From Pseudomonas sp. (lineage in GTDB: Bacteria > Pseudomonadota > Gammaproteobacteria > Pseudomonadales > Pseudomonadaceae): a DNA stretch of 64,000 nt. Location: contig NZ_JAUXMX010000034.1 of the NCBI RefSeq assembly GCF_030683065.1, forward strand, positions 2,385 to 66,384, given 5' to 3'. This document shows positions 1 through 64,000 of this stretch, in pieces. Numbering within the stretch: the stretch's first letter is position 1; each line of letters starts with the position of its first letter. Under the pieces are notes generated by a model. It was not told the origin of the DNA. It made no database searches and saw nothing but the letters and a program-made list of their open reading frames with translations. The position numbers were made by a program, and so were the translations under genes.

Positions 1-347
1 CCCACGGGGCTGATCAGCTTGCAGAGCTGATGGGCTACGACGAGGAGAACATTCAACAGCGTGAGGAGTTGATGCTGGATGTCACCAACATTCTCAGTGG
101 CGCCTGCATCAACAGCCTGGCTGAGCAGTTCGAGATTCCGGTCAGCTTCGGTGCCCCGTCAGTGTTCTCACGGCAAGCCCCATTCAAGCAAGCGATGAAT
201 AACAAGGCGCTGCAGAGCCATCAAACCTTGATCATGGAGATTCGTTTTGAAGTTAAGGCGTGCCAATTCACCTGCGATCTGCTGCTGTGTATCGCGCAGG
301 AGACGGTTGAGCATGTGATGGCGGTAATTGATCGGCTATTGAGTTAA
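1..347 (+). CDS. 3' end of a gene truncated by the window edge; probable response-regulator C-terminal CheC/CheX-like domain
   Basis: The frame of track ORF 30..347 stays open back to nt 3, so the gene begins upstream of the window. Stop TAA at 345-347, 8 nt before the kinase gene (operon-like). The domain call is from remembered similarity only. Confidence 0.4.
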   Translation, partial: HGADQLAELMGYDEENIQQREELMLDVTNILSGACINSLAEQFEIPVSFGAPSVFSRQAPFKQAMNNKALQSHQTLIMEIRFEVKACQFTCDLLLCIAQETVEHVMAVIDRLLS

Positions 348-354
348 CGCTGAG

Positions 355-1653: not shown

Positions 1654-1815
1654 GCACGGTGGCGCTGGTAACGGGCTGAACGCTGCGCGATGCCTTGGTG
1701 CCCTCTGCGCTTAGAGGTCAGGAATATATCCGGGGACAGACCACCATTTCTCGGGGCTATATCCGCGCAAATCGTGAGCCGCCCCTTGATGACATGGAGT
1801 AAGGCGGTGGAAGAA

Positions 1816-2004
1816 ATGAGCCGACAGCGAACCATGGCTTTTGTATGCCACGTAGCGGCATGCCTGCTATTTACGCTAGCGGCCACTAGCAGCCAGTCGC
1901 GTCAGGCAGAAAACGATCCATTGCGGACGCTTAACTGTCTCGATGACGTCGGGGAGATTCAGGATATGACACGAGTTAGCCCACCCGAGTCATGGGGTAA
2001 GTGA
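1816..2004 (+). CDS. hypothetical small (62 aa) protein with signal-peptide-like N-terminus
   Basis: Internal ATG of track ORF 1690..2004, preceded by GGTGGAAG. N-terminus is MSRQRTMAFVCHVAACLLFTLAATS. The 3' end overlaps the convergent PhzF gene by 15 nt. No homolog recognised. Confidence 0.25.
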   Translation: MSRQRTMAFVCHVAACLLFTLAATSSQSRQAENDPLRTLNCLDDVGEIQDMTRVSPPESWGK

Positions 2005-2871
2005 AATTGAACCTTGCACCCGAATTGCAGATACTCCACCGATCAATATCGTACCGTCAGAACTAAACTCAACTTCAATCCTGCCATCGCGCCCGACTTT
2101 ATTTCCTTGCGATGCACTATATCGCGATGGTGCTATGCCGCTGCGCTGAAGCATCGCGGCGACGCAGCCATTACCACTGCCGCATACCGGATCTTCTGGG
2201 ACGGCGTCGCCTGGCACAAATGAGCGCACCTCAACCAATGCAGAATCACCATCTGCATACAGGCCGAAGACAGTAAGTCCCGTGCAGTTTGTAGTTGCTT
2301 GCGCGAGGCAATTAATGTTCGGCTTTAGATCTAGAACATCTTGCGCAGAGCGAAGTTGCAAAGTGATCCAGACAGCACCGACATCGATAATTGCAGCATT
2401 GCATACGGACTCACGATGGATGCCAATGGCCGCTAGAATGTCCAGTAGCCTGTGCTCACCTAGCGGCGCAAAACTAGGCGCTGGCAATTCAAAGAAGATC
2501 CTGTTGCCGAGTAAGTGAAGCGGTACCAGTCCCTGATCACACTCCTGAACAAGCATTCCAGCTGTCTTAGGAGTCTGCCCATAAGCTAGCAATGCTGCGG
2601 CGCTCCCGATGGTTGGGTGTCCTGCAAATGGTAATTCACCTCGCGTGGTAAAGATCCTCAGTCGATAATCAGCGTTGCTGATCGTTGGTGCACATACAAA
2701 AGTCGTTTCGGATAAATTTGTCCAGTTAGCTATTTCAAGCATCTGCGAACTCGAAATATTATCCGCCTCCAGAATGACGGCAACTGGATTTCCTTTAAAT
2801 GGAGCCCCTCCAAAAACATCAACCTGGAAAAATGGAAGATTCATTTGGCCACTACTCCCTGCCATGAACAC
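1990..2871 (-). CDS. PhzF-family (phenazine-biosynthesis-like) isomerase
   Basis: 293-aa ORF. Family-typical N-terminus MNLPFFQVDVFGGAPFKGNPVAVILEAD, so the true start is probably the ATG at 2844. Lower GC than the rest of the window. Confidence 0.88.
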   Translation of the reverse strand: MFMAGSSGQMNLPFFQVDVFGGAPFKGNPVAVILEADNISSSQMLEIANWTNLSETTFVCAPTISNADYRLRIFTTRGELPFAGHPTIGSAAALLAYGQTPKTAGMLVQECDQGLVPLHLLGNRIFFELPAPSFAPLGEHRLLDILAAIGIHRESVCNAAIIDVGAVWITLQLRSAQDVLDLKPNINCLAQATTNCTGLTVFGLYADGDSALVEVRSFVPGDAVPEDPVCGSGNGCVAAMLQRSGIAPSRYSASQGNKVGRDGRIEVEFSSDGTILIGGVSAIRVQGSISLTP

Positions 2872-2976
2872 CTTTAGTCATAATTTTGAGCGCCAGGCAA
2901 CGCCTGGCTAACACTTACGCTGCTCTCTTCAAAGGATATTTAAAAATCTCAGATGAGTGCACCCCCAGAGCTGATA

Positions 2977-3192
2977 CTAGCTTGCGCTAGATCTTTTGCA
3001 ATTGGCTTTATCATGGCTGACAGCCTCAGACTTCAACTTCTTCTTTTCGACTTCATTTGCGTGAATAATTTTTTGTTTAGCTCTAAATTGTTCATGCCTC
3101 TTCATAGAGCGATCATGACCGTCTTCGGCATGTACCTGTGTGTAGCCAGCGACAAGCAAAAGACCGACAATAAAACCATTTATAATCTTCAT
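2977..3192 (-). CDS. hypothetical small (71 aa) secreted protein, highly charged mature part
   Basis: Signal-peptide-like MKIINGFIVGLLLVAGYTQVHA followed by EDGHDRSMKRHEQFRAKQK. Sits in an AT-rich spacer and the RBS is weak. The opposite-strand ORF 2953..3258 looks spurious. Confidence 0.4.
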   Translation of the reverse strand: MKIINGFIVGLLLVAGYTQVHAEDGHDRSMKRHEQFRAKQKIIHANEVEKKKLKSEAVSHDKANCKRSSAS

Positions 3193-3295
3193 GATATATA
3201 TCTCGCTAGTTTAATTGATGATTTACTGGGCGCGCATGAAAACAGCGCAAGCTCATAAAGGCTGAGCCTTTTAATTAAATTAATAACGTAATGTA

Positions 3296-3319
3296 GATGC
3301 CTGTAACTTGAGAGGCATC
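3296..3319 (-). terminator. stem-loop downstream of the SDR gene (possible terminator)
   Basis: GATGCCT (3296-3302), 10-nt loop, AGGCATC (3313-3319), 74 nt past the SDR stop in AT-rich DNA. A second small hairpin AAGGC-TGA-GCCTT lies at about 3259-3271. Confidence 0.35.
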
Positions 3320-3392
3320 CGACCTGATTAACTTTCAAATCGGCGCCTTCTTAAATTTCAGTGACTTACTTTCAGTGCAGATTGGCTCTTCT

Positions 3393-4001
3393 TCAGGCGT
3401 CGACGAATATAACCTTTCCGGTGATGAAGCCATCAACCGAGCGCTCAAAGGCTTTGCCTACCAGCGCGCCAGGGACAGGCTGGAAGCCTGGCATCATTTC
3501 CCCATATACGTCCCATGCCTCTTCCAGAACTGTAGGGTTGACCACGTTGATGCGAATCTGACGTGGAAGCTCGTGCGCTACGCACTGTACGAAGGTGTCG
3601 ATGGCGCCGCTGGTGGTGGCGTCAGCAATTGCCATAGGAATAGGTTTGACATTGAGAATGCCCGAAATCAACGTAAACGAACCGCCATCGTTGATGTAGT
3701 TCAGGCCCACATTTACCAGATTGATCTGGCCGACCATCTTGCTTTGGATAGTTGTGTCCCATTGCTCATCGGTCATTTCGCTGAAGTTAGCGTATTCGCA
3801 GTAGCCAACTGTATTAACGACAGCATCGAACGGCCCAACCTTTTCGAATAGAGCCTTGATCGACGCCTTGCTGGTGATATCCACCGTGTGGTCGCAGCCT
3901 GTGCCAGAGCGGCTGGCGGTGATGACGTTGTGTTTCTTGAGGCCGGTCATAGCGGCTTGGCCCATGTGCCCTTGGGCACCAATCAAAATTACGGTTTTCA
4001 T
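3393..4001 (-). CDS. short-chain dehydrogenase/reductase (short, 202 aa, NAD(P)-binding)
   Basis: N-terminal Rossmann motif ILIGAQGHMGQA. RBS GAGG lies 8 nt upstream of the ATG. Divergent from a LysR regulator. Confidence 0.85.
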   Translation of the reverse strand: MKTVILIGAQGHMGQAAMTGLKKHNVITASRSGTGCDHTVDITSKASIKALFEKVGPFDAVVNTVGYCEYANFSEMTDEQWDTTIQSKMVGQINLVNVGLNYINDGGSFTLISGILNVKPIPMAIADATTSGAIDTFVQCVAHELPRQIRINVVNPTVLEEAWDVYGEMMPGFQPVPGALVGKAFERSVDGFITGKVIFVDA

Positions 4002-4050
4002 AGCAATGCCTCGTTAAATCTTAAGGAGGCGATACTCTAGGTGCTCACTG

Positions 4051-4088
4051 ATACAATGAAAATCACCGCAGATTTGTATGAGATACAA
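4051..4088. promoter_or_regulatory. candidate LysR-type operator in the SDR/LysR divergent spacer
   Basis: Perfect 15-bp palindrome TTGTAT-GAG-ATACAA (4074-4088) plus a third ATACAA copy at 4051-4056. Confidence 0.35.
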
Positions 4089-4093
4089 CCAAA

Positions 4094-4984
4094 ATGATTG
4101 AGAAAATCGATATCAGGCACATGCGGGTTTTACTGCATCTCGTGCGCGAGAAAAACGTTTCTCGCGTTGCCGAGCGGCTTGAGATATCACAACAGGCGGT
4201 TAGCAACTACCTCAAGCGCATGCGTGAAGTGTTTCCCAATGAGCTGTTCCTGCGCCAGAGCGCAGGCCTACAGCCGACCGACTATGCGTACGACCTCGCA
4301 GCTAAATTCGAGAAAATAGTCGAAGAGATCGACGGCATCTTCAATTCATTCCCATTCGATCCAGCAACGAGTGAGTACGCATTCAGGGTGATCGCAAATG
4401 AATATGCGCAACTGTCTATCATCCCATCGCTTTCGCTGCTCATGCGCGAACGCGCACCCGGGGTGAAGCTTGAAGTCATTGACTTCAATCCCGATCAGCA
4501 TGTCAAGACGTTGGCGCAAGGAGAGGCTGACCTAGTGATTGGTTTTTCTGACTACGTTGATCCTGGATTAGTGCGGAATAGACTGAGAAGCGACCACTAC
4601 TGCTGCGTCGCTCGGCAAGGTTCGCTGCTGCCTCGGCAGATACAGGTGCTTGCAGATGTGTCCTTACATCCTCATGTGGATTTCGCCAGTGGAGTAGGCA
4701 ATCTGGGGAGTCGAGTTGATGATTTCCTTAGTGCCCGGGATGTCAGCCGCACAGTGATTGCGACTTTGCCCTGCTACACGTCTCTGCAAGCGTTTATGCA
4801 CGTGAATGATACGGTGGCTTTTGTACCCTCGGCCATTGCTGCCACCGGTGGCTTCCAAGTGATTGACTTAGACATGTCTTCCCTAAATTTCAATGTGGTT
4901 GTGGGATGGCATAGAAGAGCTTCGGGCAGTGCATCCAGAGATTGGCTTGTTCAGGTTATTGCAGGATTGCACACGTCGAGTTAG
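4094..4984 (+). CDS. LysR-family transcriptional regulator
   Basis: 296-aa ORF. N-terminal wHTH MRVLLHLVREKNVSRVAERLEISQQAVSNYLKRMRE. Divergent from the SDR gene. In-frame TGA at 4079-4081 excludes a longer N-terminus. Confidence 0.9.
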   Translation: MIEKIDIRHMRVLLHLVREKNVSRVAERLEISQQAVSNYLKRMREVFPNELFLRQSAGLQPTDYAYDLAAKFEKIVEEIDGIFNSFPFDPATSEYAFRVIANEYAQLSIIPSLSLLMRERAPGVKLEVIDFNPDQHVKTLAQGEADLVIGFSDYVDPGLVRNRLRSDHYCCVARQGSLLPRQIQVLADVSLHPHVDFASGVGNLGSRVDDFLSARDVSRTVIATLPCYTSLQAFMHVNDTVAFVPSAIAATGGFQVIDLDMSSLNFNVVVGWHRRASGSASRDWLVQVIAGLHTSS

Positions 4985-5193
4985 CTCAAAATGAATACGC
5001 CCTGATTTTGTAGACGCTCTATGACCGCTTCTGGCCGATAACGGCCAGTCACCAGCGACCGCTTCCGGCCAATAACCTTAGAACAATCAGGGCCGGAGTC
5101 GACTTCCACGTAATTCGACCCTGATTGTGCTGCCTGTATGAGAGGCCGTAATTTGTGCCCGGCTAATAAATCCGTGCTCACGTCCAGGCTCGT

Positions 5194-5691
5194 TTAAGCG
5201 CTGGCGCCAGGGGTGTTGCGAGCGTTTTTCTTCTGCAGGATCATCGACGCTTCGTTGTAGGCGTGTTGGAAGGCGGCGCCGCCGATCCACTCCACTGCCG
5301 CGTCTTCGTCTTCATCGTGGAAGATCCCGCGATAGGTGATCAGCAGGCCCATCATGAAGTCGGTCGCCGGGTCTTCTGCTTCCTCGGCTACCACCAGTTC
5401 CAACACCGGGTATTGCAGGAACACCACGCACATTGCGAGCAGGCTGATGCCTTCGCCGACTTTCATTGCCTGGAACAGGTCGTCGAAGTGCGCCGGGTCG
5501 AAGCCGTTCTCTTCGATGTCTTTGAAGTCGAAGGTGCTCAGGTCGATTTCGACATCATCGAATGGCTCGTTGATCAGTGGATTGGCCAGCACCGGATGTA
5601 CGACAGTGGCTTTGGGCTTGCCCGAACGGTTCTGCTTGGCCTTGGCTTTGGCCCGTTGGGCGCGTTTTTGCTGTTTATCTGGGGAGGCCAT
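5194..5691 (-). CDS. conserved hypothetical protein (basic N-terminus, acidic C-terminal domain)
   Basis: Track ORF 5194..5751. The start was chosen at MASPDKQQKRAQRAKAKAK (ATG 5691). High-GC codon usage. No domain recognised. Confidence 0.55.
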   Translation of the reverse strand: MASPDKQQKRAQRAKAKAKQNRSGKPKATVVHPVLANPLINEPFDDVEIDLSTFDFKDIEENGFDPAHFDDLFQAMKVGEGISLLAMCVVFLQYPVLELVVAEEAEDPATDFMMGLLITYRGIFHDEDEDAAVEWIGGAAFQHAYNEASMILQKKNARNTPGASA

Positions 5692-5852
5692 GGAGGCGAG
5701 TTCCTTGTCCGGTGCAGCCATACACATGGCGCGGGATAATCGGGCACACATTGTATGCAGTCTTGGCCGGGCCTGGCGGCCAAAGGTGGGCGATTTATTT
5801 TTTCCTGCTCTAGGGGTGCGCTTTTGGCCCTGGCTGAGCGCCGAGTGCGCGA

Positions 5853-5881
5853 GCGCATGAGCCCGATGGATCCGGGCTCAT
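5853..5881. other. stable stem-loop between convergently ending genes (terminator- or REP-like)
   Basis: Perfect 11-bp stem GCATGAGCCCG / CGGGCTCATGC with a 7-nt loop, 11 nt downstream of the GST stop. No U-tract. Confidence 0.4.
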
Positions 5882-5891
5882 GCTGAGCAGG

Positions 5892-6554
5892 TCAGGCTTT
5901 GCCAGCCATCTTAGCGAGCATTTTTTGCTCACTCGGCAAGACACCCTGCACGGATGCGCGTGCCTTGATCCGCGCATAGTGGGCGCTTAGGTTTGGCCAG
6001 CGCTGGGCGTCGAGTTGCTCGTCGCCATATTCCATGTTGATCAGTTGGCAGGCCAGCGCCAGATCGGCCAGGGTCAACTGATCACCGACCAGGTATTGAG
6101 CTGATCCCAGTATCCCTTCCAGGTAGTCGAAGTGCGGCGGGAGCAGTTCGTTCAAGGCTTTTTGAACGGCTGCCTCGTCGCAGCTCTGGCCCATGCTTGG
6201 CTTGAGTTTACGGTTGCGGAAAACAGTGAAGGTGCACAGTTGCGCCAGTTCGTAATCCGCATACTTTTCCAGCCAGTTGACGCTGGCCCGTTGTTCGGTG
6301 GTCTGACCCATCAGTTGGGTTGGGTTCGGGTATTTCTCGTCGAGGTAGTGGCAGATCACACTGGAGTCGGCGATGCAGGTTTCACCATCCTTGAGTGCCG
6401 GAATACGGCCGAGTGGGCTGATGTCTTTGAACCAGGCTGGCTGGGCAAACGGCAGGATGATTTGCAGTTGATAATCCAGGGATTTCTCAGCCAGAAACAG
6501 GCGAACTTTACGCACGAAGGGTGATAGTGGGGCACCGTAAACAGTCAGGCTCAT
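5892..6554 (-). CDS. glutathione S-transferase
   Basis: 220-aa ORF. N-terminal thioredoxin-like fold signature VYGAPLSPFVRKVRLFLAEK. Typical GST length. Confidence 0.88.
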   Translation of the reverse strand: MSLTVYGAPLSPFVRKVRLFLAEKSLDYQLQIILPFAQPAWFKDISPLGRIPALKDGETCIADSSVICHYLDEKYPNPTQLMGQTTEQRASVNWLEKYADYELAQLCTFTVFRNRKLKPSMGQSCDEAAVQKALNELLPPHFDYLEGILGSAQYLVGDQLTLADLALACQLINMEYGDEQLDAQRWPNLSAHYARIKARASVQGVLPSEQKMLAKMAGKA

Positions 6555-7152
6555 GGACGCTTCTCGTGGCTAGGTGGTGGTGGGCAAGCAGGAAGCTTGC
6601 GGGGCAGTCGTAGATGTTGTTCGTGTTCAATTTGCTGTTGCAGCTTCTGGACTCAAGGCTTGCGTCGAGTTCTTTTGGCTTGTCTCGGCTCGAGCGTATT
6701 AGTGTGGCTGAGCTGTTTGTCGAGTCGCTTGGGCGCAGTTCTTATGGCGTGCCGGTTCAGCCTTTCAAGGCACGTACTCTACGCCCCGTTAGCGGAAAAG
6801 GGCGCGGATTTTTTACAGGGGAGACCCGCCGCATTGGCCGGTTGGAGCCGATCAAGACCGGCCGCATTTCCTGCTCAGACACCCGCACGAACCCCTGGGA
6901 TTTGGCTATAAACCCGTGAACTGTTGCGAGGAGATAGGCCCAGGTTGGGCGGCGCTGCCCCGCGTCAGCCTAGCTGTTGCATGCAGACATCTGATCGCCA
7001 GGGTGGGCGTACCAGGCATAGGCGAAGATGATGCCCAGAAGCGGCAGGGCAAGGCTTCGTCAATCAGCTGGCCCCAGACAAACCCGCAACTTTATGCAAG
7101 CGCTGGCGTCAGGCGCGGCGCAGACTTCTGGGCATCTACCGGGAGTCGTCTG

Positions 7153-8055
7153 ATGAATCTGTCGTTGTACCTGTTGACCGTGCTGATCTGGGGCACCACC
7201 TGGATCGCCATCAAGCTGCAGATGGGCGAGGTGGCGATTGCCGCCTCGATTGCCTATCGCTTCGCCCTGGCGGCGGCGGTGTTGTTTGCGGTGTTGCTGC
7301 TCAGTGGCCGGCTGCAGACGCTCGATAAACGCGGCCAGGTGATCTGCCTGATTCAGGGGCTTTGCCTGTTCTGCATCAACTTCCTGTGTTTTTACACGGC
7401 CAGCCAGTGGATACCCAGTGGGCTGGTGGCGGTGATTTTCTCCACGGCGACTTTGTGGAATGCGCTGAATGCGCGGGTGTTTTTCAAGCAGAAGATCGCC
7501 GCCAATGTGCTGGCCGGCGGGGCCTTGGGGTTGGCTGGCCTGGGGCTGCTGTTCTGGCCTGAACTGGCCGGCCATGCGGCCAGTCGCGAGACGCTGCTGG
7601 GGATCGGTTTGTCGCTGATCGGCACCCTGTGTTTTTCGGCGGGCAACATGCTCTCGAGCATGCAGCAAAAAGCCGGTCTCAAACCGATGACTACCAACGC
7701 TTGGGGCATGTTCTACGGCGCCCTGATGCTGGTGGCGATTTGTCTGGTCAACGGCACGCCGTTCGGTTTCGAGTGGAATACGCGTTATGTCGGTTCGCTG
7801 CTGTACCTGGCGATTCCCGGTTCGGTGATCGGCTTCACCGCCTACCTGACCCTGGTCGGGCGCATGGGGCCGGAGCGGGCGGCCTACTGCACGGTGCTGT
7901 TCCCGGTGGTGGCGCTGAATATCTCGGTGTTTGCCGAGGGCTACCAATGGACCGCGCCGGCGTTGTTCGGCCTGCTGCTGGTGATGCTCGGTAACGTGCT
8001 GGTGTTTCGCAAGCCCAAGGCGCTGCAGGTGCCTGAACCCCGCCCGGCGATGTGA
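7153..8055 (+). CDS. EamA/DMT-family transporter
   Basis: Track ORF 6916..8055. The polytopic part starts at MNLSLYLLTVLIWGTTWIAIK (ATG 7153), with about 10 hydrophobic segments. The upstream extension is not protein-like. Confidence 0.85.
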   Translation: MNLSLYLLTVLIWGTTWIAIKLQMGEVAIAASIAYRFALAAAVLFAVLLLSGRLQTLDKRGQVICLIQGLCLFCINFLCFYTASQWIPSGLVAVIFSTATLWNALNARVFFKQKIAANVLAGGALGLAGLGLLFWPELAGHAASRETLLGIGLSLIGTLCFSAGNMLSSMQQKAGLKPMTTNAWGMFYGALMLVAICLVNGTPFGFEWNTRYVGSLLYLAIPGSVIGFTAYLTLVGRMGPERAAYCTVLFPVVALNISVFAEGYQWTAPALFGLLLVMLGNVLVFRKPKALQVPEPRPAM

Positions 8056-8138
8056 GCGTTCGACAGGCAGGCGTCTGTCGCTGGGTGCGCGCAGGTCGGC
8101 CCGCTGGCTGTGAGCTGTGCTTCTCGGTGTAGCCCGTA

Positions 8139-8543
8139 CTAGTAAAAGCGTCTGGAAAAGCGCTCGGAGAACAGCAGTTGGGCGAACAGCGGGTAGCACA
8201 GGTAATGCACGACAAAGATCAGCAGGCCCATGGGGCTGGGGTCGTCCTTGAGCACCATCATGGTTAGCAGGCCGAGATAGAGTAGCGCCAGGACGCCGCC
8301 ATAGAGCCAGACCAGGCGCCGTCGCTCACTGGGCAAAGGCGCGCGGCGCTGGCGTGCGGCAAACCAGAGGGTCATTGCGGCGGCGACTGAGCCGGCAATC
8401 AGCAGGGTGGTCAGCAGGCCGCCGAGTTTGACGAACGTGCGCAGCAGCAGATTGAGTGCGATCACCGCCGCGACACCACTCAGGGCCAGGCGCGCGATAG
8501 CCACCTCAGCAGGGCGCGGGGTCAGGTTTCTTGAGGGCGGCAT
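8139..8543 (-). CDS. hypothetical inner-membrane protein (about 4 TM)
   Basis: 134-aa ORF directly abutting the upstream SDR gene stop. Hydrophobic segments are present. No family recognised. Confidence 0.55.
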   Translation of the reverse strand: MPPSRNLTPRPAEVAIARLALSGVAAVIALNLLLRTFVKLGGLLTTLLIAGSVAAAMTLWFAARQRRAPLPSERRRLVWLYGGVLALLYLGLLTMMVLKDDPSPMGLLIFVVHYLCYPLFAQLLFSERFSRRFY

Positions 8544-15389: not shown

Positions 15390-15420
15390 GTAGGATGGGT
15401 TGAGCGAAGCGATACCCATC
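15390..15420. repeat. REP-type hairpin unit in the algI-algL spacer
   Basis: GTAGGATGGGTTGAGCGAAGCGATACCCATC with stem GATGGGT (15394-15400) / ACCCATC (15414-15420). The same unit occurs twice at 37219-37298. Confidence 0.8.
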
Positions 15421-35700: not shown

Positions 35701-36504
35701 ATGACGATCGACGAACAACGCTTTGCTGGAATCGCACGCCTGTACGGTCGCGAGGGTGCCGGGCGCCTGGCTGCGGCGCACGTCGCGGTGGTCGGCATCG
35801 GCGGTGTTGGTTCCTGGGCGGCCGAGGCGCTGGCGCGTTCGGGGGTCGGCGAGATCTCGTTGTTCGACCTGGACGATGTCTGCGTGAGTAATACCAATCG
35901 GCAGATCCAGGCGCTGGACAATACGGTCGGGCAGGCCAAGGTCGACGTCATGGCTGCGCGCATCCGTGCGATCAACCCCGCCTGCGTGGTCCACGCAGTG
36001 GCAGATTTCGTTACCCGCGAGACCATGGCCGAGTACATCACCGAGCAACTCGATGCGGTGATCGATTGCATCGACAGCGTAAACGCCAAGGCGGCGCTGA
36101 TCTCATGGTGCAAGCGGCGCAAGATCCAGGTGGTCACCACTGGCGGCGCCGGCGGGCAGATCGACCCGACGCAGATCCAGGTCGGTGACCTGAACAAGAC
36201 CTGGAACGATCCGCTGGCCTCAAAAGTGCGCTCGACCCTGCGCCGCGATTACAACTTCTCGCGCACGCCGGGGCGCAACTACAGCGTGCCCTGCGTGTTT
36301 TCCACCGAGCAGCTGCGCTACCCGAAACCGGACGGCAGCGTATGCCAGTACAAGGGTTTCGTCGGCGAAGGGGTCAAGCTCGACTGCGCCGGTGGTTTTG
36401 GCGCGGCGATGATGGTCACCGCCAGCTTCGGCATGGTTGCTGTAGCCAAGACCGTGGAAAAGCTGGTGGCCGGTGTCCGCAGGCCAGCCGAGCGAAGCCA
36501 ATAA
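35701..36504 (+). CDS. tcdA: tRNA threonylcarbamoyladenosine dehydratase (ThiF/E1-like, CsdL)
   Basis: 267 aa. Rossmann motif VVGIGGVGSWAAEALARSGVG. Convergent with csdE, as I recall for the E. coli csdA-csdE / tcdA locus. Confidence 0.85.
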   Translation: MTIDEQRFAGIARLYGREGAGRLAAAHVAVVGIGGVGSWAAEALARSGVGEISLFDLDDVCVSNTNRQIQALDNTVGQAKVDVMAARIRAINPACVVHAVADFVTRETMAEYITEQLDAVIDCIDSVNAKAALISWCKRRKIQVVTTGGAGGQIDPTQIQVGDLNKTWNDPLASKVRSTLRRDYNFSRTPGRNYSVPCVFSTEQLRYPKPDGSVCQYKGFVGEGVKLDCAGGFGAAMMVTASFGMVAVAKTVEKLVAGVRRPAERSQ

Positions 36505-36633
36505 GGGTTGGGCGGGGTAGGGTGCGCCGCGCGCAGATGGTTGTTGATGCGTACAGCCAGCGGTCTTGATCCTTACGCGCCCCGGCTGTGCGACAGCGCG
36601 GGGTCGTAGGCGAGGCGCTACCTGCTACGGCAT

Positions 36634-37044
36634 CTAAGCGTCGCTGGCCAGCTCATGCATGCGCCGCAGCACGGCATTCAGGCCATTGCTGCGTGATGGC
36701 GAGAGCTGGCGCGCCAGACCCAGTTGGTCGAGCCAGTCGGTCAGGTCGACGTCGGCCCGTTGTGCGTTGCTCAGGCCGTTGACCCGTGCCAGTAGCAGTG
36801 CCAGCAGGCCGCGCAGCAGGCGTGCATCGCTGCTGGCGCGAAACTGCCAGCACTGCTCGATGTGTTCGGCGACCAGCCAGACCTGACTTTCGCAGCCCGG
36901 TACACGATTGGCCGCGCAGCGCTCCTCCTCACTCAGGCCGGGCAGGCGCTCGCCCCACTGCATAAGCAAGCGCGCACGCTGTTCCCAGCCGGTGCATTGG
37001 TCGAAGGCGGCGAGGGCTTGCTGGGCAGCAACGGGTAGGCTCAT
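36634..37044 (-). CDS. csdE: SufE-family sulfur acceptor (CsdE-like)
   Basis: 136 aa with the conserved Cys loop RVPGCESQVW. Confidence 0.8.
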   Translation of the reverse strand: MSLPVAAQQALAAFDQCTGWEQRARLLMQWGERLPGLSEEERCAANRVPGCESQVWLVAEHIEQCWQFRASSDARLLRGLLALLLARVNGLSNAQRADVDLTDWLDQLGLARQLSPSRSNGLNAVLRRMHELASDA

Positions 37045-37190
37045 CGCTGCAGCTCCAGGGCCTGATCCTGGGCATCGAGCATGGCCTGGAGTTTTTGTGC
37101 GGTGGCGGCGCTGTCCAGATAGGTCTGGTCTTCACCGTCGAGGGCCAGGATGCCGGGAAAGCCGCGACGCCAGGGGGAGGGCAAAGACAT
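37041..37190 (-). pseudogene. csdA: 49-codon remnant of a class-II cysteine desulfurase (csdA) gene
   Basis: Hand translation of the minus strand gives MSLPSPWRRGFPGILALDGEDQTYLDSAATAQKLQAMLDAQDQALELQR*. The segment FP..L.....YLDSAATAQK...LDA is the typical CsdA/SufS N-terminus. The stop TGA overlaps the csdE ATG (ATGA). It is too short to appear in the ORF track. Confidence 0.65.
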
Positions 37191-37218
37191 TGCAGGATTC
37201 CTGCGGGTGACGAGAACC

Positions 37219-37298
37219 GTAGAATGGGTTGAGCGCAGCGATACCCATAAAGCGGCTGCGCTTCAGTGATGGGTATCGCGGTGCTCAACCTGGCCTAC
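37219..37298. repeat. inverted pair of REP-type units forming a roughly 25-bp-stem hairpin
   Basis: GTAGAATGGGTTGAGCGCAGCGATACCCAT (37219-37248) and its inverted copy ATGGGTATCGCGGTGCTCAACCTGGCCTAC (37269-37298). Same unit as at 15390-15420. Confidence 0.85.
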
Positions 37299-37329: not shown

Positions 37330-38364
37330 TTAATTGTGGGCGTGCAGCGCTTCGTTCAACTCAATCGCCGACTTGTGGGTTTTGCATTCCACTGCGCCGG
37401 TCTGCGAGTTGCGGCGGAACAGCAGGTCAGGCTGGCCAGCCAGTTCGCGGGCCTTGACTACCTTGACCAACTCGCCTTTGTCGTCGAGCAGGGCCACCTT
37501 GGTGCCGGCGGTGATGTACAGGCCGGACTCCACGGTATTGCGGTCGCCCAGGGGGATACCGATGCCGGCGTTGGCGCCGATCAGGCAGCCTTCACCCACG
37601 GAAATCACCAGGTTGCCGCCACCGGACAGGGTGCCCATGGTCGAGCAGCCGCCGCCCAGGTCCGAACCCTTGCCGACGAATACCCCGGCGGAGACGCGGC
37701 CTTCGATCATGCCCGGGCCTGCGGTGCCGGCATTGAAGTTGACGAAACCTTCGTGCATCACAGTGGTGCCTTCACCTACGTAAGCGCCCAGGCGAATGCG
37801 CGCGGTATCGGCGATGCGCACGCCGCTTGGTACCACGTAGTCGGTCATTTTCGGGAACTTGTCTACCGAGAAGACTTCCAGCAGTTCGCTGCGCAGGCGT
37901 GCTTCCAGTTGCCGTCCGGGCAGTTCGCTGAGGTCGATGGCGCCCTGGCTGGTCCAGGCTACGTTGGGCAGCAATGGGAAAATACCGGTCAGGTTCAGGC
38001 CATGCGGCTTGACCAGGCGATGCGACAGCAGGTGCAGCTTGAGGTAGGCCTCGGGTGTGCTGCTCAGGGGAAGGTCGTCTTGGATGAAGGTGGCGACCAG
38101 TGGCTGATGGCTTTCCGCCAGACGCGTGAGCAGGGCGGCCTGGACGGTATCGATAGCTTTCAAGGCTTCGGCCAGATCGCCGGCTTGCTGGGTGGTGAAG
38201 CTGATCGCCTGGTTGCCGCCGCTATAACCCAGTTTCTCCGCCGCTTTGGCCACCAGTTCGGCCGCAGGGTTGAGCATTGGCTGGGCATAGAAGACTTCCA
38301 ACCAGTTACTTTGACGGTTTTGTGTGCCAACGCCGAAGGCCAGGCTGAAGAGGGACATGGTCAT
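37330..38364 (-). CDS. dapD: tetrahydrodipicolinate N-succinyltransferase
   Basis: 344-aa long-form DapD with hexapeptide-repeat C-terminal domain. Confidence 0.92.
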   Translation of the reverse strand: MTMSLFSLAFGVGTQNRQSNWLEVFYAQPMLNPAAELVAKAAEKLGYSGGNQAISFTTQQAGDLAEALKAIDTVQAALLTRLAESHQPLVATFIQDDLPLSSTPEAYLKLHLLSHRLVKPHGLNLTGIFPLLPNVAWTSQGAIDLSELPGRQLEARLRSELLEVFSVDKFPKMTDYVVPSGVRIADTARIRLGAYVGEGTTVMHEGFVNFNAGTAGPGMIEGRVSAGVFVGKGSDLGGGCSTMGTLSGGGNLVISVGEGCLIGANAGIGIPLGDRNTVESGLYITAGTKVALLDDKGELVKVVKARELAGQPDLLFRRNSQTGAVECKTHKSAIELNEALHAHN

Positions 38365-56589: not shown

Positions 56590-57723
56590 ATGGCGGATCT
56601 ATTGCGTGTCGCGCTGGTGGCTGGCGAAGCCTCTGGCGATATCCTCGGTGCTGGCCTGATGCAGGCCCTGAAGACCCGTTACCCGCAAGTCGAATTTATC
56701 GGCGTTGGCGGCCCGTTCATGCAGGCCGAGGGTCTCAATCCTTATTTCCCTATGGATCGTCTGGCGGTGATGGGGCTGGTCGAAGTACTCGGCCGGCTGC
56801 CGGAACTGCTCGCCCGACGCAGGCGCCTGATCAAGACCTTGATCGACGCCAAGCCGCATGTGTTTATCGGTATCGATGCGCCGGATTTCAACCTGGGTCT
56901 GGAGCTCAAGTTGCGTCGTGCCGGGATCAAGACCGTGCACTACGTCAGCCCCTCGGTCTGGGCCTGGCGGCAGAAGCGCGTGTTGAAAATTCGTGATGCC
57001 TGCGACCTGATGCTGACCCTGTTTCCATTCGAGGCGCAGTTCTACGACGCCCATCAGGTGCCAGTGCGCTTCGTCGGCCACCCATTGGCCGATGCGATTC
57101 CACCGCAGGCCGATCGTGCTAGTGCGCGCGAGGCCCTGGACTTGCCGCAAGCCGGCACCGTAGTGGCGTTGTTGCCGGGCAGTCGGGGTGGCGAGGTGGC
57201 GCGTCTGGGTGCGCTGTTTCTCGATACCGCGGTGCGCCTGCGTACCTTGCGTCCGGGTATTCGTTTCGTCATGCCGTGCGCCAGCCCGGAGCGTCGTGTG
57301 CAGCTTGAGCAGATGCTGGTCGGGCGTGACCTGCCCTTGACCCTGCTCGATGGCCGCTCCCACGATGCACTGGCAGCTTGTGATGCGGTATTGATCGCCT
57401 CGGGTACGGCTACCTTGGAAGCCTTGTTGTATAAGCGGCCAATGGTGGTGGCCTACAAGGTCGCGCCACTGACCTACCTGATTCTCAAGCGCCTGGTCAG
57501 CAGCGCTTATATCTCACTGCCGAATCTGTTGGCCCAGCGTCTGCTGGTTCCTGAGTTGATCCAGGATGCTGCAACCCCGGAGGCCCTGGCTCAGGCGTTG
57601 GCCCCGCTGCTCAATGACGGCGAAGTGCAGACCGAAGGTTTCGATGTGATTCATCGTGCCTTGCGTCGCGATGCTTCTGCTCAGGCGGCCGATGCCGTGC
57701 TCACGTTGATAGGGCAGGGTTGA
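56590..57723 (+). CDS. lpxB: lipid-A-disaccharide synthase
   Basis: 377 aa. N-terminal [12 protein letters not shown] motif. Confidence 0.95.
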
Positions 57724-58334
57724 TGCAGTTGGGTCTGGATTTCAGTCATGTGCAGGAATTGGTTGCCGGTGTCGACGAGGTCGGTCGTGGTCCGCTATGC
57801 GGCGCCGTGGTAACCGCAGCGGTGATTCTCGATCCGCTGCGGCCGATTAAGGGGCTTAATGACTCGAAGAAGCTCAGCGCCGCGCGTCGTGAGCAACTCT
57901 TCGATGAAATCTGCGAGAAGGCCGTGGCCTGGTGTATTGCCCGCGCCGAAGTGGAGGAAATCGATCGTCTGAACATCCTTCACGCGACCATGCTGGCCAT
58001 GCAGCGTGCGGTCGAAGGGTTGTCTGTGGTGCCGCTGCTGGCGCTGATCGACGGCAACCGCTGCCCTGTCCTGCAGGTGCCAAGCGCAGCTGTAGTCAAG
58101 GGCGACAGCCAGGTCCCGGCGATTGCCGCTGCATCGATTCTGGCCAAGGTCAGTCGCGATCGTGAGATGCAGCTGCTTGATGCGCAATACCCCGGTTATG
58201 GTATTGCCGGGCACAAGGGGTATCCCACGCCGGTGCACCTGGAGGCACTGCGGCGCCTGGGTCCGACTCCGATTCACCGGCGCTCATTCGCGCCCGTGCG
58301 CGCATTGCTGGCCGAAAACCCTGAGCGCGGATAG
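57720..58334 (+). CDS. rnhB: ribonuclease HII
   Basis: 204 aa. [17 protein letters not shown] motif. Confidence 0.95.
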
Positions 58335-58798
58335 AAAGCCGGGTACTGCCTGGATGCCGATCAATGCGATCGGAGTCATTGCGTTAAAGCGTGATTCTCT
58401 GAAATCAACTGCCCTGGCTTATTGATTCGGCGATCAACTCGCCCAGTTGCACGTGTGTCGGGTGCTGGCGGTGGATGACTCGAATGCAGCCTTGCACCGG
58501 ACGTATAATGCCACGCGTTGTCGGGTCATCGACGTCGTGTCGCTGCGCAAGAGCAGGGGTGCGATGGTAGGAATGAGGCGTTTGATCGACACGGCTCAGG
58601 CCATCAGCATTCTGCTTCGGACAATACAGTTCCCGCGATGAACAGCAGCTTGCCAGCTGACTGAGTTCGGCCTTGGACCGCGGCATGGGCCTCGGAAGGC
58701 CTCTCAAGCGTGCTGGCCACATTCTCCGTAGCTCTACTGATGAAGTGCCTGCAGCGTGCTGTCTGGAATGTCGATGCGACAAGTCCAATGGGTGACTA

Positions 58799-58831
58799 AT
58801 ACTTGACTAGAATGCTTGGTTATTGCATTGT
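58799..58831 (+). promoter_or_regulatory. IscR type-1-like operator overlapping a candidate sigma-70 promoter upstream of the Rrf2 pseudogene/suf operon
   Basis: ATACTTGACTAGAATGCTTGGTTAT (58799-58823) matches 20 of 25 positions of the type-1 IscR motif as I recall it (ATASYYGACTRWWWYAGTCRRSTAT). The left half matches perfectly. TTGACT (58803-58808), N17, CATTGT (58826-58831). Confidence 0.4.
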
Positions 58832-58862
58832 GCAGGCCTGTCCAGAAGGCTTGGAGCTGTTA

Positions 58863-59318
58863 ATGAGACTGACTACTAAAGACCGCTGTGTGCTGCCGGC
58901 AAGGCTCGATTTAGCCTTTCATGAGGGGCAAGCCCCCATTGCTTGTGCGCAAATTTACCGGCGCCAAGGCGTGTCTGGCTCATGTCTGGAGCAACTGTTT
59001 ACCGCGCTGCGCCGCCATCTGCGGGCTAACAGTGCTAACGGGCGCAGCGGTATAGTTTGCCGATTATCAGCTGGGGAGATGTGCCTACCCATCATGCGTG
59101 GTCGGTCCTGACTGACTGGCTACAGCCTGGCTGATGCAGTCAGTTGTAAGGATACCCAAGACGTCCACTTCCGTCAGGACCAATATGATGGAACCGCACC
59201 CCTGCCGGACAACAGTCTGGTACGCATTATTTTAAAACGGCCATTAGAGCCGCCTGATTCGTGCAGCACTGATACCTGGCGCCATCGGCCCTCGTACCGA
59301 GACTGCAGCCTGAACTGA
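58863..59318 (+). pseudogene. decayed Rrf2/IscR-family regulator gene
   Basis: MRLTTKDRCVLPARLDLAFHEGQAPIACAQIYRRQGVSGSCLEQLFTALRR aligns with the IscR N-terminus (MRLTSKGRYAVTAMLD...RQGISLSYLEQLF..LR). The GPGGGY wing is lost (NGRSGIVC). There is an in-frame TGA at 59109-59111. Downstream similarity (C.T..W) is patchy and appears in two frames with further stops. Confidence 0.65.
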
Positions 59319-59368
59319 CTTTGCTGCCAAGGGCCTTCGCCGCTTGGCTGCATGACTGAGGTGATACC

Positions 59369-60805
<1,437 letters not shown>

Positions 60806-60865
60806 CCTGAACACCTTACAGCGGCCTTGAATGCCCCCAATTCATGCAGATATCAGGCATTAAAT

Positions 60866-61615
60866 ATGTTATCAGTCAAAGACTTACACGCAAAAGTTGA
60901 AGGCCTTGAAATTCTTAAGGGTCTTGCTATCGAGATCAAGCCCGGCGAAGTGCATGCCATTATGGGCCCCAATGGTTCCGGCAAAAGCACCTTGGGCAAT
61001 GTGCTCTCGGGGCGTCCGGGCTATGAAGCCACTGCGGGCGTCATCACCTTCAAGGGCCATGATTTGCTGGCCATGAGCACCGAAGAGCGTGCTCGTGAAG
61101 GCTTGTTTCTGGCTTTCCAGTACCCAGTGGAAATTCCTGGCGTGAGCAATATGGAATTTCTCAAGGTGTCGGTGGATGCCAAGCGCAAGCACGCTGGCCT
61201 GCCTGCGCTGTCGGCGGTCGAGTTTATGAAACTGGCTCGGGCTACCAGTCAGCGAGTGGATCTTGATGCGAGCTTTTTAAAGCGCGGGGTTAACGAAGGT
61301 TTTTCCGGCGGCGAGAAAAAGCGCAACGAGATCATGCAGATGATGCTGCTTGAACCTGATCTGTGCATTCTCGATGAAACCGACTCGGGGCTGGATATCG
61401 ATGCCCTGCAATTGGTCGCCGAAGGCGTTAACAGCATGCGTGACGGCAAGCGTAGCTTTATCGTGGTGACCCACTACCAGCGTCTGCTGGACTACATCGT
61501 GCCGGATTTTGTACATGTGCTGGCCGATGGCCGTATCGTCAAATCCGGTGACAAGAGCCTGGCCCTCGAATTGGAAGCCAAAGGTTACAGCTGGTTGGAA
61601 AACGAGGTCGCCTGA
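60866..61615 (+). CDS. sufC: Fe-S cluster assembly ATPase SufC
   Basis: Start at MLSVKDLHAKVEG (ATG 60866). Walker A GPNGSGKST and ABC signature FSGGEKKR. Confidence 0.95.
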   Translation: MLSVKDLHAKVEGLEILKGLAIEIKPGEVHAIMGPNGSGKSTLGNVLSGRPGYEATAGVITFKGHDLLAMSTEERAREGLFLAFQYPVEIPGVSNMEFLKVSVDAKRKHAGLPALSAVEFMKLARATSQRVDLDASFLKRGVNEGFSGGEKKRNEIMQMMLLEPDLCILDETDSGLDIDALQLVAEGVNSMRDGKRSFIVVTHYQRLLDYIVPDFVHVLADGRIVKSGDKSLALELEAKGYSWLENEVA

Positions 61616-61619
61616 AACC

Positions 61620-62927
61620 ATGACTGACTTTCAAAAAAACGCCATCACCCTGGCTGCCGAGCAAAGCACGCCGGCCTGGCTAGCTGCCTTGCGCCATCAG
61701 GGCGCAGCCGACTGGTCGGCGGCCGCTTGGCCAGGGCGCAAAACCGAGCTATGGCAGAACACCACGCTGGCCCCCCTGCAAACCAACGGCCCAGTCCGCT
61801 GGGCCTCTGCTGGTACTAACGACTGGCAGGCCAGCGTCGAAACCATGCCGTTGGACGCTACCCGGCTGGTGTTTGTCAACGGTCAGTTCGCTGCCGAGCA
61901 TTCCAGCCCATTGCCGGAAGAAGTGGTGCGCTTTGCCGATGCCAATGCCGCACAGCAACAGCTGATTGAGCAGCACTTGGGGCAGGTGGTCGATGTCCAG
62001 CGGCACCTGTTTGCTGCACTCAGCAACGCTTGGCTTGCGGATGGGATTCTGCTGCAGGTGCGTCAAGGTCAGACGCTCGACAAGCCGGTGTATATTCTCA
62101 ACGTCTCGACCCCCGAGGCGCAGCCTGCGGTGAGCAATCAGCGCGTGCTGTTAGTGCTGGAAGACAGCAGCCAGGCGGAAGTCATCGAGCATTACGTTTC
62201 CAGCTCTGCGCAACAGAATGGCTTCGTCAATTGCCTGACCGAGATAGTGGTGGGTGCCAATGCCCGGCTGCAGCATTACCGCATCAACCTGGAGCAGGAA
62301 GACCTGCTGCATGTCGGTGGCGTGCATGTGAACCTGCAACGCGACGCGCATTTTTACGGTTTCACCCTGGCCCAGGGTAGCCGCCTGAAACGCATCGACT
62401 ACCAGGTCAACCACCGTGGCCCAGGTGCGCACCTGGAACTGCACGGCGTCTATCTGCCGCGCAACAAGCAGCAGATCGACTACCACACCAACGTCGAGCA
62501 CTGCGTGCCGCACTGCACTACCAAGGAAATTTTCCGCGGCATTATTGGTGATTCGGCCAGGGCGGTGTTCAACGGGCGCATTCATATCCATCCCCAGGCC
62601 CAGAAGACCTTGGCCGAGCTCAGCAACAAGAACCTGCTGACCTCGCGCAGCGCCGAGGTTTACACCAAGCCGGAGCTGGAAATCTACGCCGACGATGTGC
62701 GCTGCGCCCATGGTGCGACCATCACCCAGCTCGATCAGACCTCGCTGTTTTACCTGCAGAGCCGCGGGCTGTCGCATGCCGAGGCCATGAGCATGCTCAG
62801 TTTCGGGTTTATCAATGAGCTGCTTAACCAGGTGCCGGAGCCGGCCATTCAGGCCTATTTGCGCCCGCGCATCGCTGCTCTGCTTGGCCGTGAAGCAGTC
62901 CATCTGGAGCAACTGAACGATGAGTGA
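61620..62927 (+). CDS. sufD: Fe-S cluster assembly protein SufD
   Basis: Start at MTDFQKNAITLAAEQ (ATG 61620), giving 435 aa. SufB/D-family C-terminal beta-helix. Confidence 0.9.
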   Translation: MTDFQKNAITLAAEQSTPAWLAALRHQGAADWSAAAWPGRKTELWQNTTLAPLQTNGPVRWASAGTNDWQASVETMPLDATRLVFVNGQFAAEHSSPLPEEVVRFADANAAQQQLIEQHLGQVVDVQRHLFAALSNAWLADGILLQVRQGQTLDKPVYILNVSTPEAQPAVSNQRVLLVLEDSSQAEVIEHYVSSSAQQNGFVNCLTEIVVGANARLQHYRINLEQEDLLHVGGVHVNLQRDAHFYGFTLAQGSRLKRIDYQVNHRGPGAHLELHGVYLPRNKQQIDYHTNVEHCVPHCTTKEIFRGIIGDSARAVFNGRIHIHPQAQKTLAELSNKNLLTSRSAEVYTKPELEIYADDVRCAHGATITQLDQTSLFYLQSRGLSHAEAMSMLSFGFINELLNQVPEPAIQAYLRPRIAALLGREAVHLEQLNDE

Positions 62928-64000
62928 GCACGCCCTGCAACCGCTGCCGAGCTTTGACGCCGAACGGGTCCGCAAGGATTTTCCGATTCTGCACCAACAG
63001 GTCAACGGTCATCCGCTGGTTTACCTGGACAATGCCGCCACCACGCAAAAACCCGAGGTGGTGATTCAGGCCATCGTCGATTACTACCGCCAGGACAACA
63101 GCAATGTGCACCGTGGCGCTCACGCCCTGGCCGAGCGCGCTACCGAGAAATTCGAGGCGGCGCGCGGCAAGGTCGCCGGTTTGCTCAATGCGCCGCACAG
63201 CCGGCAGATTATCTGGACCCGTGGCACCACCGAGGGCATCAATCTGGTAGCCGCCAGTTGGGGGCGCAGTCAGTTGCAGGCCGGCGACCGGATTTTGGTT
63301 TCGGCCATGGAGCATCACTCCAATATCGTGCCCTGGCAGATGATTGCCGCCGAGCGCGGTGCCACGGTCGAGGCGATTCCGGTGGATGCCAGCGGCACGC
63401 TGAACATGAGCGCTTTTGCCGACATGCTTGATGAGCGTGTACGCATGGTCGCCTGCGCGCAGGTGTCTAACGCCTTGGGCAGTATCAACCCGGTTGAGGA
63501 CATCGTGCGCATGGCCCATGGCGTAGGTGCACTGTGCCTGGTCGACGGTGCCCAGGCCATCAGCCATTGGCCGGTGGATGTGCAGGCGCTGGACTGCGAT
63601 TTTTATGTGTTTTCCGCCCACAAGCTGTTTGGCCCCACCGGGCTGGGCGTGTTGTATGGCAAGGCTCAATTGCTGGAAAGCATGCCGCCTTACCAAGGGG
63701 GCGGTGAGATGATCGAATCGGTGAGTTTTGCCGGCACCACCTACAACCAGCTGCCTTACAAGTTTGAAGCAGGCACCCCGGATATTGCCGGGGTGATTGG
63801 ACTCGGTGCAGCCGTTGATTATGTGCAAAGCCTTGACCGCGTGGCCGCGGCGGCGCACGAACAGGCTTTGCTGGCCTATGCCGAGGAGCGCGCCAAGGCT
63901 ACGCCGGGGATGCGCCTGGTAGGCACCGCCACGCACAAGGCTGCGGTAATGAGTTTTTTGCTGGAGGGCGCGCATCCGCACGATGTGGGTATGTTGCTCG
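62920..64000 (+). CDS. sufS: cysteine desulfurase SufS (class II), 3'-truncated by the window end
   Basis: Not in the ORF track because no stop falls in the window. Hand translation from ATG 62920 gives MSEHALQPLPSFDAERVRKDFPILHQQVNGHPLVYLDNAATTQKPEV..., the PLP-Lys motif FSAHKLFGPTGLGVLYGK, and HPHDVGMLL at the edge. 8-nt overlap with sufD. Confidence 0.92.
   Translation, partial: MSEHALQPLPSFDAERVRKDFPILHQQVNGHPLVYLDNAATTQKPEVVIQAIVDYYRQDNSNVHRGAHALAERATEKFEAARGKVAGLLNAPHSRQIIWTRGTTEGINLVAASWGRSQLQAGDRILVSAMEHHSNIVPWQMIAAERGATVEAIPVDASGTLNMSAFADMLDERVRMVACAQVSNALGSINPVEDIVRMAHGVGALCLVDGAQAISHWPVDVQALDCDFYVFSAHKLFGPTGLGVLYGKAQLLESMPPYQGGGEMIESVSFAGTTYNQLPYKFEAGTPDIAGVIGLGAAVDYVQSLDRVAAAAHEQALLAYAEERAKATPGMRLVGTATHKAAVMSFLLEGAHPHDVGMLL

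Follow-up and report, generated by a model that had tools for sequence, protein, structure and literature searches.

A 49-codon csdA remnant overlapping csdE in a suf-carrying Pseudomonas lineage

In Escherichia coli, the proteins CsdA, CsdE and TcdA (CsdL) constitute a sulfur relay for cyclic N6-threonylcarbamoyladenosine at tRNA position 37 (ct6A37), as attributed to Miyauchi et al. (2013) in PMC4405576. Deletion of csdA leaves 12% of the ct6A and deletion of csdE only 2%, indicating that CsdE is the more important of the two and is partly served even when CsdA is missing, while TcdA alone makes ct6A in vitro (PMC4405576). In P. aeruginosa, ct6A is abolished by loss of the CsdA homologue PA14_16930 (PMC11245014), and strain PAO1 contains only the iron–sulfur cluster (ISC) system (PMC6599224). 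The present analysis concerns the corresponding locus of Pseudomonas sp. within a stretch of 64,000 nucleotides (contig NZ_JAUXMX010000034.1 of assembly GCF_030683065.1, positions 2,385 to 66,384), hereafter the window, in which csdA is reduced to a 49-codon open reading frame between dapD and csdE.

Compared with the E. coli CsdA–CsdE–TcdA system, the window displays the same gene set and layout, with csdA preceding csdE through overlapping stop and start codons and with tcdA convergent. CsdE likewise carries a single catalytic cysteine in a GCE loop, and TcdA is a full equivalog match, whereas csdA comprises only 49 codons and lacks both the pyridoxal 5'-phosphate (PLP) lysine and the catalytic cysteine. 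Relative to the dapD–csdA–csdE/tcdA locus of other Pseudomonas (for example, P. aeruginosa PA14_16930), the flanking genes and their order are the same and the ends of the remnant are orthologous to the ends of csdA; the window differs by a 1,056-bp internal deletion and by a palindrome in the spacer that resembles repetitive extragenic palindromic (REP) elements. A suf operon is present in the window genome and lacking in P. aeruginosa (PMC6599224). Its SufS is a paralogous class-II desulfurase and CsdE is a SufE-family acceptor, so that members of both the SufS–SufE and the CsdA–CsdE systems occur in this genome. The operon encodes a dedicated SufE partner for SufS, however, and transfer to CsdE would cross systems described as partner-specific (PMC8300815).

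The 49-codon frame is, with good probability, a non-functional and decaying csdA remnant that still supplies the translation signals of csdE, with SufS as the most likely replacement sulfur donor. The remnant itself is a pseudogene of a familiar kind and does not overturn current understanding. Mildly new is a CSD/TcdA module without its own desulfurase that is kept in a small suf-carrying Pseudomonas clade. The need of a sulfur relay for the non-thiolated ct6A is still unexplained, and this lineage, a natural csdA knockout, bears directly on that question: it can reveal either a CsdA-independent role of CsdE or the charging of CsdE by SufS or IscS.

The csdA remnant and its deletion junction

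The remnant is composed of the following elements.

37041–37190, minus strand: csdA remnant, a 49-codon open reading frame (codons 1–40, a junction codon, the last eight codons and the stop), drawn from the open reading frame listing and from profile and tblastn matches
37071–37190, minus strand: 5' part of the remnant, homologous to csdA codons 1–40
37068–37070, minus strand: deletion junction codon CAG, where CTG is expected; CAG is common to all remnant alleles
37041–37067, minus strand: original csdA 3' end, DQALELQR plus stop, containing the csdE Shine–Dalgarno sequence GGAG and the ATGA overlap

The frame starts with ATG and its listed translation is MSLPSPWRRGFPGILALDGEDQTYLDSAATAQKLQAMLDAQDQALELQR. 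Its TGA (37043–37041) overlaps the csdE ATG (37044–37042), generating the sequence ATGA at 37041–37044. The initial annotation had described a 49-codon csdA stub overlapping csdE in this way, and the same frame, translation and overlap were recovered here, the dapD–csdE gap measuring 285 bp where 286 had been given. Its further claim of a desulfurase-like N-terminus is borne out by two comparisons. The NCBIfam CsdA model NF008126 aligns residues 5–45 of the remnant to model positions 7–43 of 401 (E=3.9e-5), and P. borbori CsdA matches the remnant in tblastn with 87.5% identity across residues 1–40 (E=3.5e-15). The resemblance to desulfurase N-termini is above chance. The full-family scores lie below membership, at 22.9 bits for NF008126 against a cutoff of 607 and at 13.5 bits for Pfam Aminotran_5 against a cutoff of 21.5, the latter covering only profile positions 1–23 of 371.

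Position and both termini place the frame in the csdA line of descent: it occupies the dapD–csdE slot, it retains the 87.5% identity over codons 1–40, and its last eight codons are orthologous to codons 394–401 of intact relatives, as had been proposed for these codons and the ATGA as the original csdA 3' end. csdA spans 401 codons in each of the five nearest relatives with an intact gene (L004, L005 P. tumuqii, L007 P. borbori, L010 and L016). Their CsdA begins with MSLISPWRADFPGILALDGEGQTYLDSAATAQKPQAMLDA/LLGYY and ends with FFAAL/DQALELLR, the slash denoting the breakpoint, and the corresponding DNA reads GATGCCCTG/CTCGGC on the left and GCCGCCCTG/GATCAG on the right. Across the junction, the DNA of the remnant reads GATGCC-CAG-GATCAG. 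The remnant consists of csdA codons 1–40, CAG and codons 394–401, which corresponds to an in-frame loss of 1,056 bp, or 352 codons, with codons 41–392 or, equivalently, 42–393 as the deleted block; the initial annotation had anticipated an internal, frame-preserving deletion of roughly 350 codons with both original ends kept. Both active-site elements fall inside this block, namely the PLP lysine of the SSHK motif (residue 223; region 220–227 in P. borbori CsdA) and the catalytic cysteine of GHHCA (residue 359; region 356–360). With both residues lost, no desulfurase activity is possible from this locus.

In the parental genes, 6-nt GCCCTG direct repeats lie at both breakpoints (csdA codons 40–41 and 392–393), and one copy is kept in the remnant. 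As judged from the sequence, this pattern fits a microhomology or slippage-type event. A single 1,056-bp deletion between the repeats joined codon 40 to the final eight and removed the catalytic body; it kept the reading frame and spared both the 5' end of csdA and its terminal 27 nt, with GGAG and ATGA. With these two segments in place, csdE should still be expressible as before, via its own ribosome-binding site or through coupling. The arrangement resembles bacterial pseudogene remnants produced by deletions between short direct repeats in its 6-nt repeats, in the single retained copy and in the relaxed surviving coding part. It differs from them in that the deletion is in frame and both translation signals are kept, leaving a clean short frame coupled to the downstream gene. 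For annotation, the 49-codon frame should be called a csdA remnant rather than a desulfurase or a hypothetical protein.

Distribution and ancestry of the deletion allele

A CsdE scan with one genome per species yielded the 80 best Pseudomonas loci; in 78 of these, the match to the first 40 residues of the remnant lies about 1.2 kb 5' of csdE. In 77 of the 80, the frame whose stop forms the csdE ATGA is a csdA some 401 codons long, so that relatives clearly hold a full csdA at this place, in line with the deletion proposed in the initial annotation; one further locus (L023) was miscounted because its coordinates were shifted by two codons, and its csdA is probably intact as well. Only two loci, L001 (CsdE 91% identical to that of the window) and L002 (84%), carry a 49-codon remnant with the identical junction. 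Both are separate species-level genomes represented by NCBI metagenome-assembled genomes (MAGs).

The exact 49-residue product was found on further contigs of independent assemblies (Logan SRR13727541, JGI 3300050211 and JGI 3300035311), and variant alleles, P0001 and P0003, are found in JGI and ENA data. Altogether, at least six sources, assembled independently and with different assemblers, contain the identical junction (the window, the two NCBI MAGs, and Logan, JGI and ENA metagenomes). The alleles differ from one another by 18–22 substitutions within the first 40 codons and nevertheless share derived states that intact genes lack: the junction codon CAG instead of CTG, AAA instead of AAG at codon 33, and a changed penultimate codon. 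These three shared states make one ancestral deletion the parsimonious explanation. Independent recurrence of the deletion was considered and rejected as less parsimonious, given the shared non-parental CAG, the AAA at codon 33 and the altered penultimate codon.

The same observations bear on the idea that the genome truly holds a full csdA that was lost in sequencing or assembly. Short direct repeats do flank the deletion and could collapse in principle; otherwise nothing was found in favour of such an artefact. The 6-nt repeats are far too short for assembler collapse, and neither the recurrence of one junction in independent assemblies nor the combination of divergent alleles with common derived changes is expected from it. 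Since the junction appears in two species genomes and in several independent metagenome assemblies, the remnant is not an assembly artefact; collapse, which the initial annotation had named as a concern, is excluded by this comparison, and the chance that an artefact of any kind underlies the frame is negligible.

Two further searches gave little. The junction sequence CTNGAYGCNCARGAYCARGCNCTGGAGCT was without a match in a scan of metagenome contigs, and a protein homologue search with the 49-residue product returned only three short relatives, a result that is weak on distribution because gene callers rarely call the frame. One candidate, P0244, a 401-residue protein placed in the same 90% cluster as the remnant of L002, was rejected as an unrelated protein and a clustering artefact.

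The L002 locus (positions 1–8408), compared with the window and with L004, L007 and L016, is a mosaic. Its dapD, outer flanks and part of tcdA are 93–97% identical at the nucleotide level to intact-csdA genomes versus 86–92% to the window and L001. Between the dapD stop codon and the end of the remnant, spacer included, it carries the sequence type of the window, with the REP-like palindrome. Its csdE is a patchwork; some stretches of this gene and of tcdA cluster with those of the window and L001. This mosaic structure indicates that the deletion allele, or its flanks, moved by homologous recombination, in one direction or the other.

Selection on the remnant, csdE and tcdA

The genes and elements adjoining the remnant are listed below.

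36634–37044, minus strand: csdE, SufE-like sulfur acceptor, intact, with a GCE cysteine loop (Pfam SufE, E=6.8e-39; TIGR03391, E=2.8e-28)
35701–36504, plus strand: tcdA, tRNA t6A37 dehydratase producing ct6A, convergent with csdE (NF011696)
37330–38364, minus strand: dapD, same-strand upstream neighbour (TIGR03536, 615 bits)
37227–37290, no strand assigned: REP-like palindrome with 22-nt arms and a 20-nt loop in the dapD–remnant spacer (fold z = -7.0)
37192–37204, minus strand: 5-bp hairpin GCAGGAATCCTGC holding AGGAA, immediately 5' of the remnant ATG, not conserved in L001 or L002

Across the first 40 codons, the ratio of non-synonymous to synonymous substitution rates (dN/dS) is 0.38–0.66 for pairs of remnants versus 0–0.2 for pairs of intact genes. 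Between the window and L001, seven synonymous and 15 non-synonymous changes have accumulated, which does not differ from the neutral expectation (P=0.29) and contrasts with the 7:0 ratio between the intact genes of L007 and L010 (Fisher P=0.002). Substitutions in the three remnant lineages are distributed over codon positions 1:2:3 as 7:10:14, and uniformity is not rejected (chi-square P=0.30). In the remnants of the window and L001, the conserved QKP motif now reads QKL. Since the first 40 codons drift almost neutrally, the peptide probably has no protein-level function. A functional micro-protein was likewise rejected, with substitutions even over codon positions and dN/dS of 0.4–0.7.

The 3' end behaves differently, as the last 42 nt received only 2 of the 31 remnant-lineage substitutions (P=0.003). 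This segment harbours the csdE Shine–Dalgarno sequence GGAG (37053–37056), located 8 nt 5' of the csdE ATG and within the last 27 nt of the remnant. The ATGA stop/start overlap is found in 78 of the 80 Pseudomonas loci, and GGAG at positions -12 to -9 is conserved among them. With ATGA and a downstream Shine–Dalgarno sequence inside the upstream frame, the remnant and csdE form a predicted translationally coupled pair. Only the 3'-terminal 40 nt or so remain conserved, probably as the translation initiation region of csdE.

The profile matches of both downstream genes, together with the intact cysteine loop and low dN/dS, are consistent with the earlier impression that csdE and tcdA are functional. 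CsdE contains the GCESQVW loop and scores 132.8 bits against Pfam SufE (cutoff 27), which places it among the SufE-type acceptors. TIGR03391 (CsdE) is its best NCBIfam match at 98.7 bits, below the equivalog cutoff of 136.4, so that its assignment as CsdE is based on the SufE domain and on synteny. TcdA scores 360.7 bits against NF011696 (cutoff 304) over positions 10–266 of 268 and belongs to that equivalog family. In all remnant-bearing genomes, csdE is intact, with the GCESQVW loop and all core motifs. Its dN/dS is 0.27–0.34 among these genomes versus 0.15–0.32 among intact-csdA genomes, and that of tcdA is 0.015–0.05, indicative of strong purifying selection. Both genes remain under purifying selection. 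Two CsdE residues that are invariant in 78 of 78 sequences, Phe105 and Leu96, are altered in the window lineage.

The suf operon and the candidate sulfur donor

The region downstream of rnhB contains a suf operon and what looks like a regulator remnant.

57720–58334: rnhB, followed after a 1-kb spacer by the suf genes
58863–59111, plus strand: probable truncated Rrf2-type regulator remnant, an 82-codon frame (MRLTTKDRCVL...; Pfam Rrf2 E=3.5e-5, below cutoff)
59369–60805, plus strand: sufB, in the operon following rnhB
60827–61615, plus strand: sufC, same operon
about 61614–62927, plus strand: sufD, same operon
62920 to the window end (64000), plus strand: sufS, candidate replacement desulfurase, truncated by the window end

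The sufS gene that the initial annotation had placed at 62920 is real: despite truncation by the window end, its product scores 491.8 bits against TIGR01979 (cutoff 475.1), and sufB, sufC and sufD lie directly upstream. SufS is the only other class-II desulfurase in the window and is 44% identical to the CsdA of relatives. The operon is inserted about 22 kb from the remnant. In the assembly of L001, the gene order is rnhB, sufBCDS-sufA-sufT-sufE, dnaE. In that of L002, SufS (MDP3978008.1) is 94% identical to the window protein and lies 25 accession numbers from the remnant (MDP3977983.1), with 138,586 nt given as the longest contig in both records. No suf genes separate rnhB from dnaE in P. 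borbori (GCA_054483635.1) and P. paeninsulae (CP141799.1), where the two genes are adjacent. All three remnant-bearing genomes therefore carry the suf insertion, and the one relative seen for both features, P. borbori, has an intact csdA and no suf genes at this site. The complete suf operon, about 7.3 kb long, occupies the rnhB–dnaE spacer (58335–64000 in the window, to its end; 10610–17925 in L091).

The nearest named SufS homologues belong to Halopseudomonas (80–84% identity). This suggests lateral acquisition of the operon, in a genus in which the model species contain ISC alone. Other SufS homologues (P0006, P0007, P0009 and P0018) show the suf operon layout as well; they come from unrelated assemblies and give no link of suf to csdA status. 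The isolate Pseudomonas sp. CC6-YY-74 has a SufS in the same 90% cluster.

On this distribution, CsdE would now be charged by another desulfurase. Because every remnant-bearing genome examined carries a complete suf operon, SufS is the desulfurase most likely to have replaced CsdA as donor for CsdE and TcdA, IscS being the second candidate, and acquisition of suf may be the reason why csdA became dispensable. From gene content, SufS is a plausible donor in this role. Several points weigh against a csdA remnant whose partner is served by SufS. The view is limited to the 64-kb window, and a second csdA or another dedicated donor could lie elsewhere in the genome; the initial claim that CsdE and TcdA are left without their cognate desulfurase accordingly applies to the window only. 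Class-II desulfurases reportedly serve only their cognate acceptors (PMC8300815), and a SufE is already encoded in the suf operon, so that transfer from SufS to CsdE would be cross-talk and not a given. The P. borbori genome lacking suf at the rnhB–dnaE site (GCA_054483635.1) and the one with the intact csdA (type strain DSM 17834, L007) are different strains, and absence of suf from that site is not equal to absence from the genome. At the locus itself, the histidine preceding the GCE loop of CsdE (codon 49, window 36898–36900) is replaced in the three remnant-bearing genomes, by Pro, Pro and Leu, and the CsdE of the window and L001 has a mean identity to 73 outgroup sequences of 68–69% versus 71–73% for intact genomes. 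This acceleration and the histidine replacement could represent incipient decay rather than retained function. Finally, the ATG is retained and the 49 codons are open and free of indels in every known remnant allele (window, L001, L002, P0001 and P0003), which leaves room for selection on translation of the frame.

This last point is the core of a leader-frame explanation, in which translation of the remnant ends at the ATGA and re-initiates on csdE, the frame being under selection and its amino acids not. The preserved ATGA and GGAG agree with it, as does the near-neutral dN/dS, which fits a sequence-independent constraint. The absence of indels from five alleles is also in keeping with it, given that the dapD–remnant spacer has several indels among the same genomes. 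When the observed numbers of substitutions were simulated, however, the chance that all three frames stay open with a start codon in the absence of selection was 0.21, and the open frame is thus not evidence of selection. The proposed AGGAA ribosome-binding site of the remnant is present in the window, as initially described, but sits inside the 5-bp hairpin and is not conserved in L001 or L002, where no purine-rich motif precedes the ATG. Furthermore, the GGAG of csdE, at optimal spacing, could initiate independently. The substitution pattern, as far as it goes, gives the possible retention of the remnant for coupling neither positive support nor refutation, and we regard a selected leader frame as doubtful, though with a real chance of being correct.

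The changes in CsdE can be read in two ways that depart further from simple retention. One is that the whole CSD branch is being lost, with csdE an orphan whose product is no longer supplied with sulfur and which is in early relaxed decay, and with TcdA either working alone or ct6A itself lost. The in vitro activity of TcdA with ATP alone (PMC4405576) would permit this. In addition, the CsdE of the window and L001 deviates at 5–6 of 84 positions that are conserved in at least 90% of intact-genome CsdE sequences, compared with a mean of 1.2. His49 beside the catalytic cysteine, lost in all three remnant-bearing genomes, is kept in 71 of 78 intact-csdA genomes, including the five closest relatives, and TcdA exhibits no outgroup-distance shift like the 3–4 percentage points of CsdE. 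Against decay, csdE retains the cysteine loop and core motifs in every remnant-bearing allele seen, and its dN/dS lies within or just above the intact range, whereas the adjacent remnant reaches 0.4–0.7. Pairs of remnant-bearing genomes have reached a synonymous divergence of 0.16–0.42, enough for a useless 136-codon gene to gain a disabling mutation, and ct6A needs Csd proteins in vivo in E. coli and P. aeruginosa (PMC4405576, PMC11245014). Decay of the whole branch is judged quite unlikely. The other reading is a takeover, in which SufS assumed the supply of CsdE and TcdA after the suf insertion, the loss of csdA turned neutral or beneficial, and homologous recombination carried the deletion allele from lineage to lineage. 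The spread is suggested by L002, which combines the junction and spacer type of the window with flanks that group with intact-csdA genomes. Under a takeover, CsdE would have adapted to its new donor, with the changed histidine by the cysteine loop and its mildly faster evolution as the traces. This full sequence of events is put forward tentatively and is, as a whole, rather improbable; the decaying remnant with retained csdE signals and SufS as the likeliest donor is the explanation preferred here.

Several minor features accompany the locus. The arms of the REP-like palindrome are 91% complementary, and a further copy of one arm lies at 15398–15419. The palindrome is common to the window and L002, partial in L010 and absent from L001. 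A promoter scan between dapD and csdE found no sigma-70-like site. Within the 129-bp gap between tcdA and csdE, a GC-rich hairpin TGCGCCGCGCGCA with a T-rich tail (36523–36535, plus strand) may serve as a terminator shared by the two convergent genes; the number of terminator-like hairpins in the surrounding region is not above the shuffled expectation. The match of the Rrf2-like frame 5' of sufB extends over just the first 61 of 132 Pfam Rrf2 positions, and the frame looks like a truncated remnant of an IscR/SufR-type regulator. At the corresponding place, a relative with its suf operon elsewhere (L083) has a full Rrf2 gene of 164 residues. Exact look-ups of the window Frr and RpsB gave no match in P. 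paeninsulae, and this species is not among the 80 best CsdE loci, where a close CsdE would be expected at the top; either its genome lies outside that collection or csdE is lacking. In P. paeninsulae (L090/L103, CP141799.1), FabZ is identical to that of the window, RnhB is 95% identical and PyrH differs by three residues.

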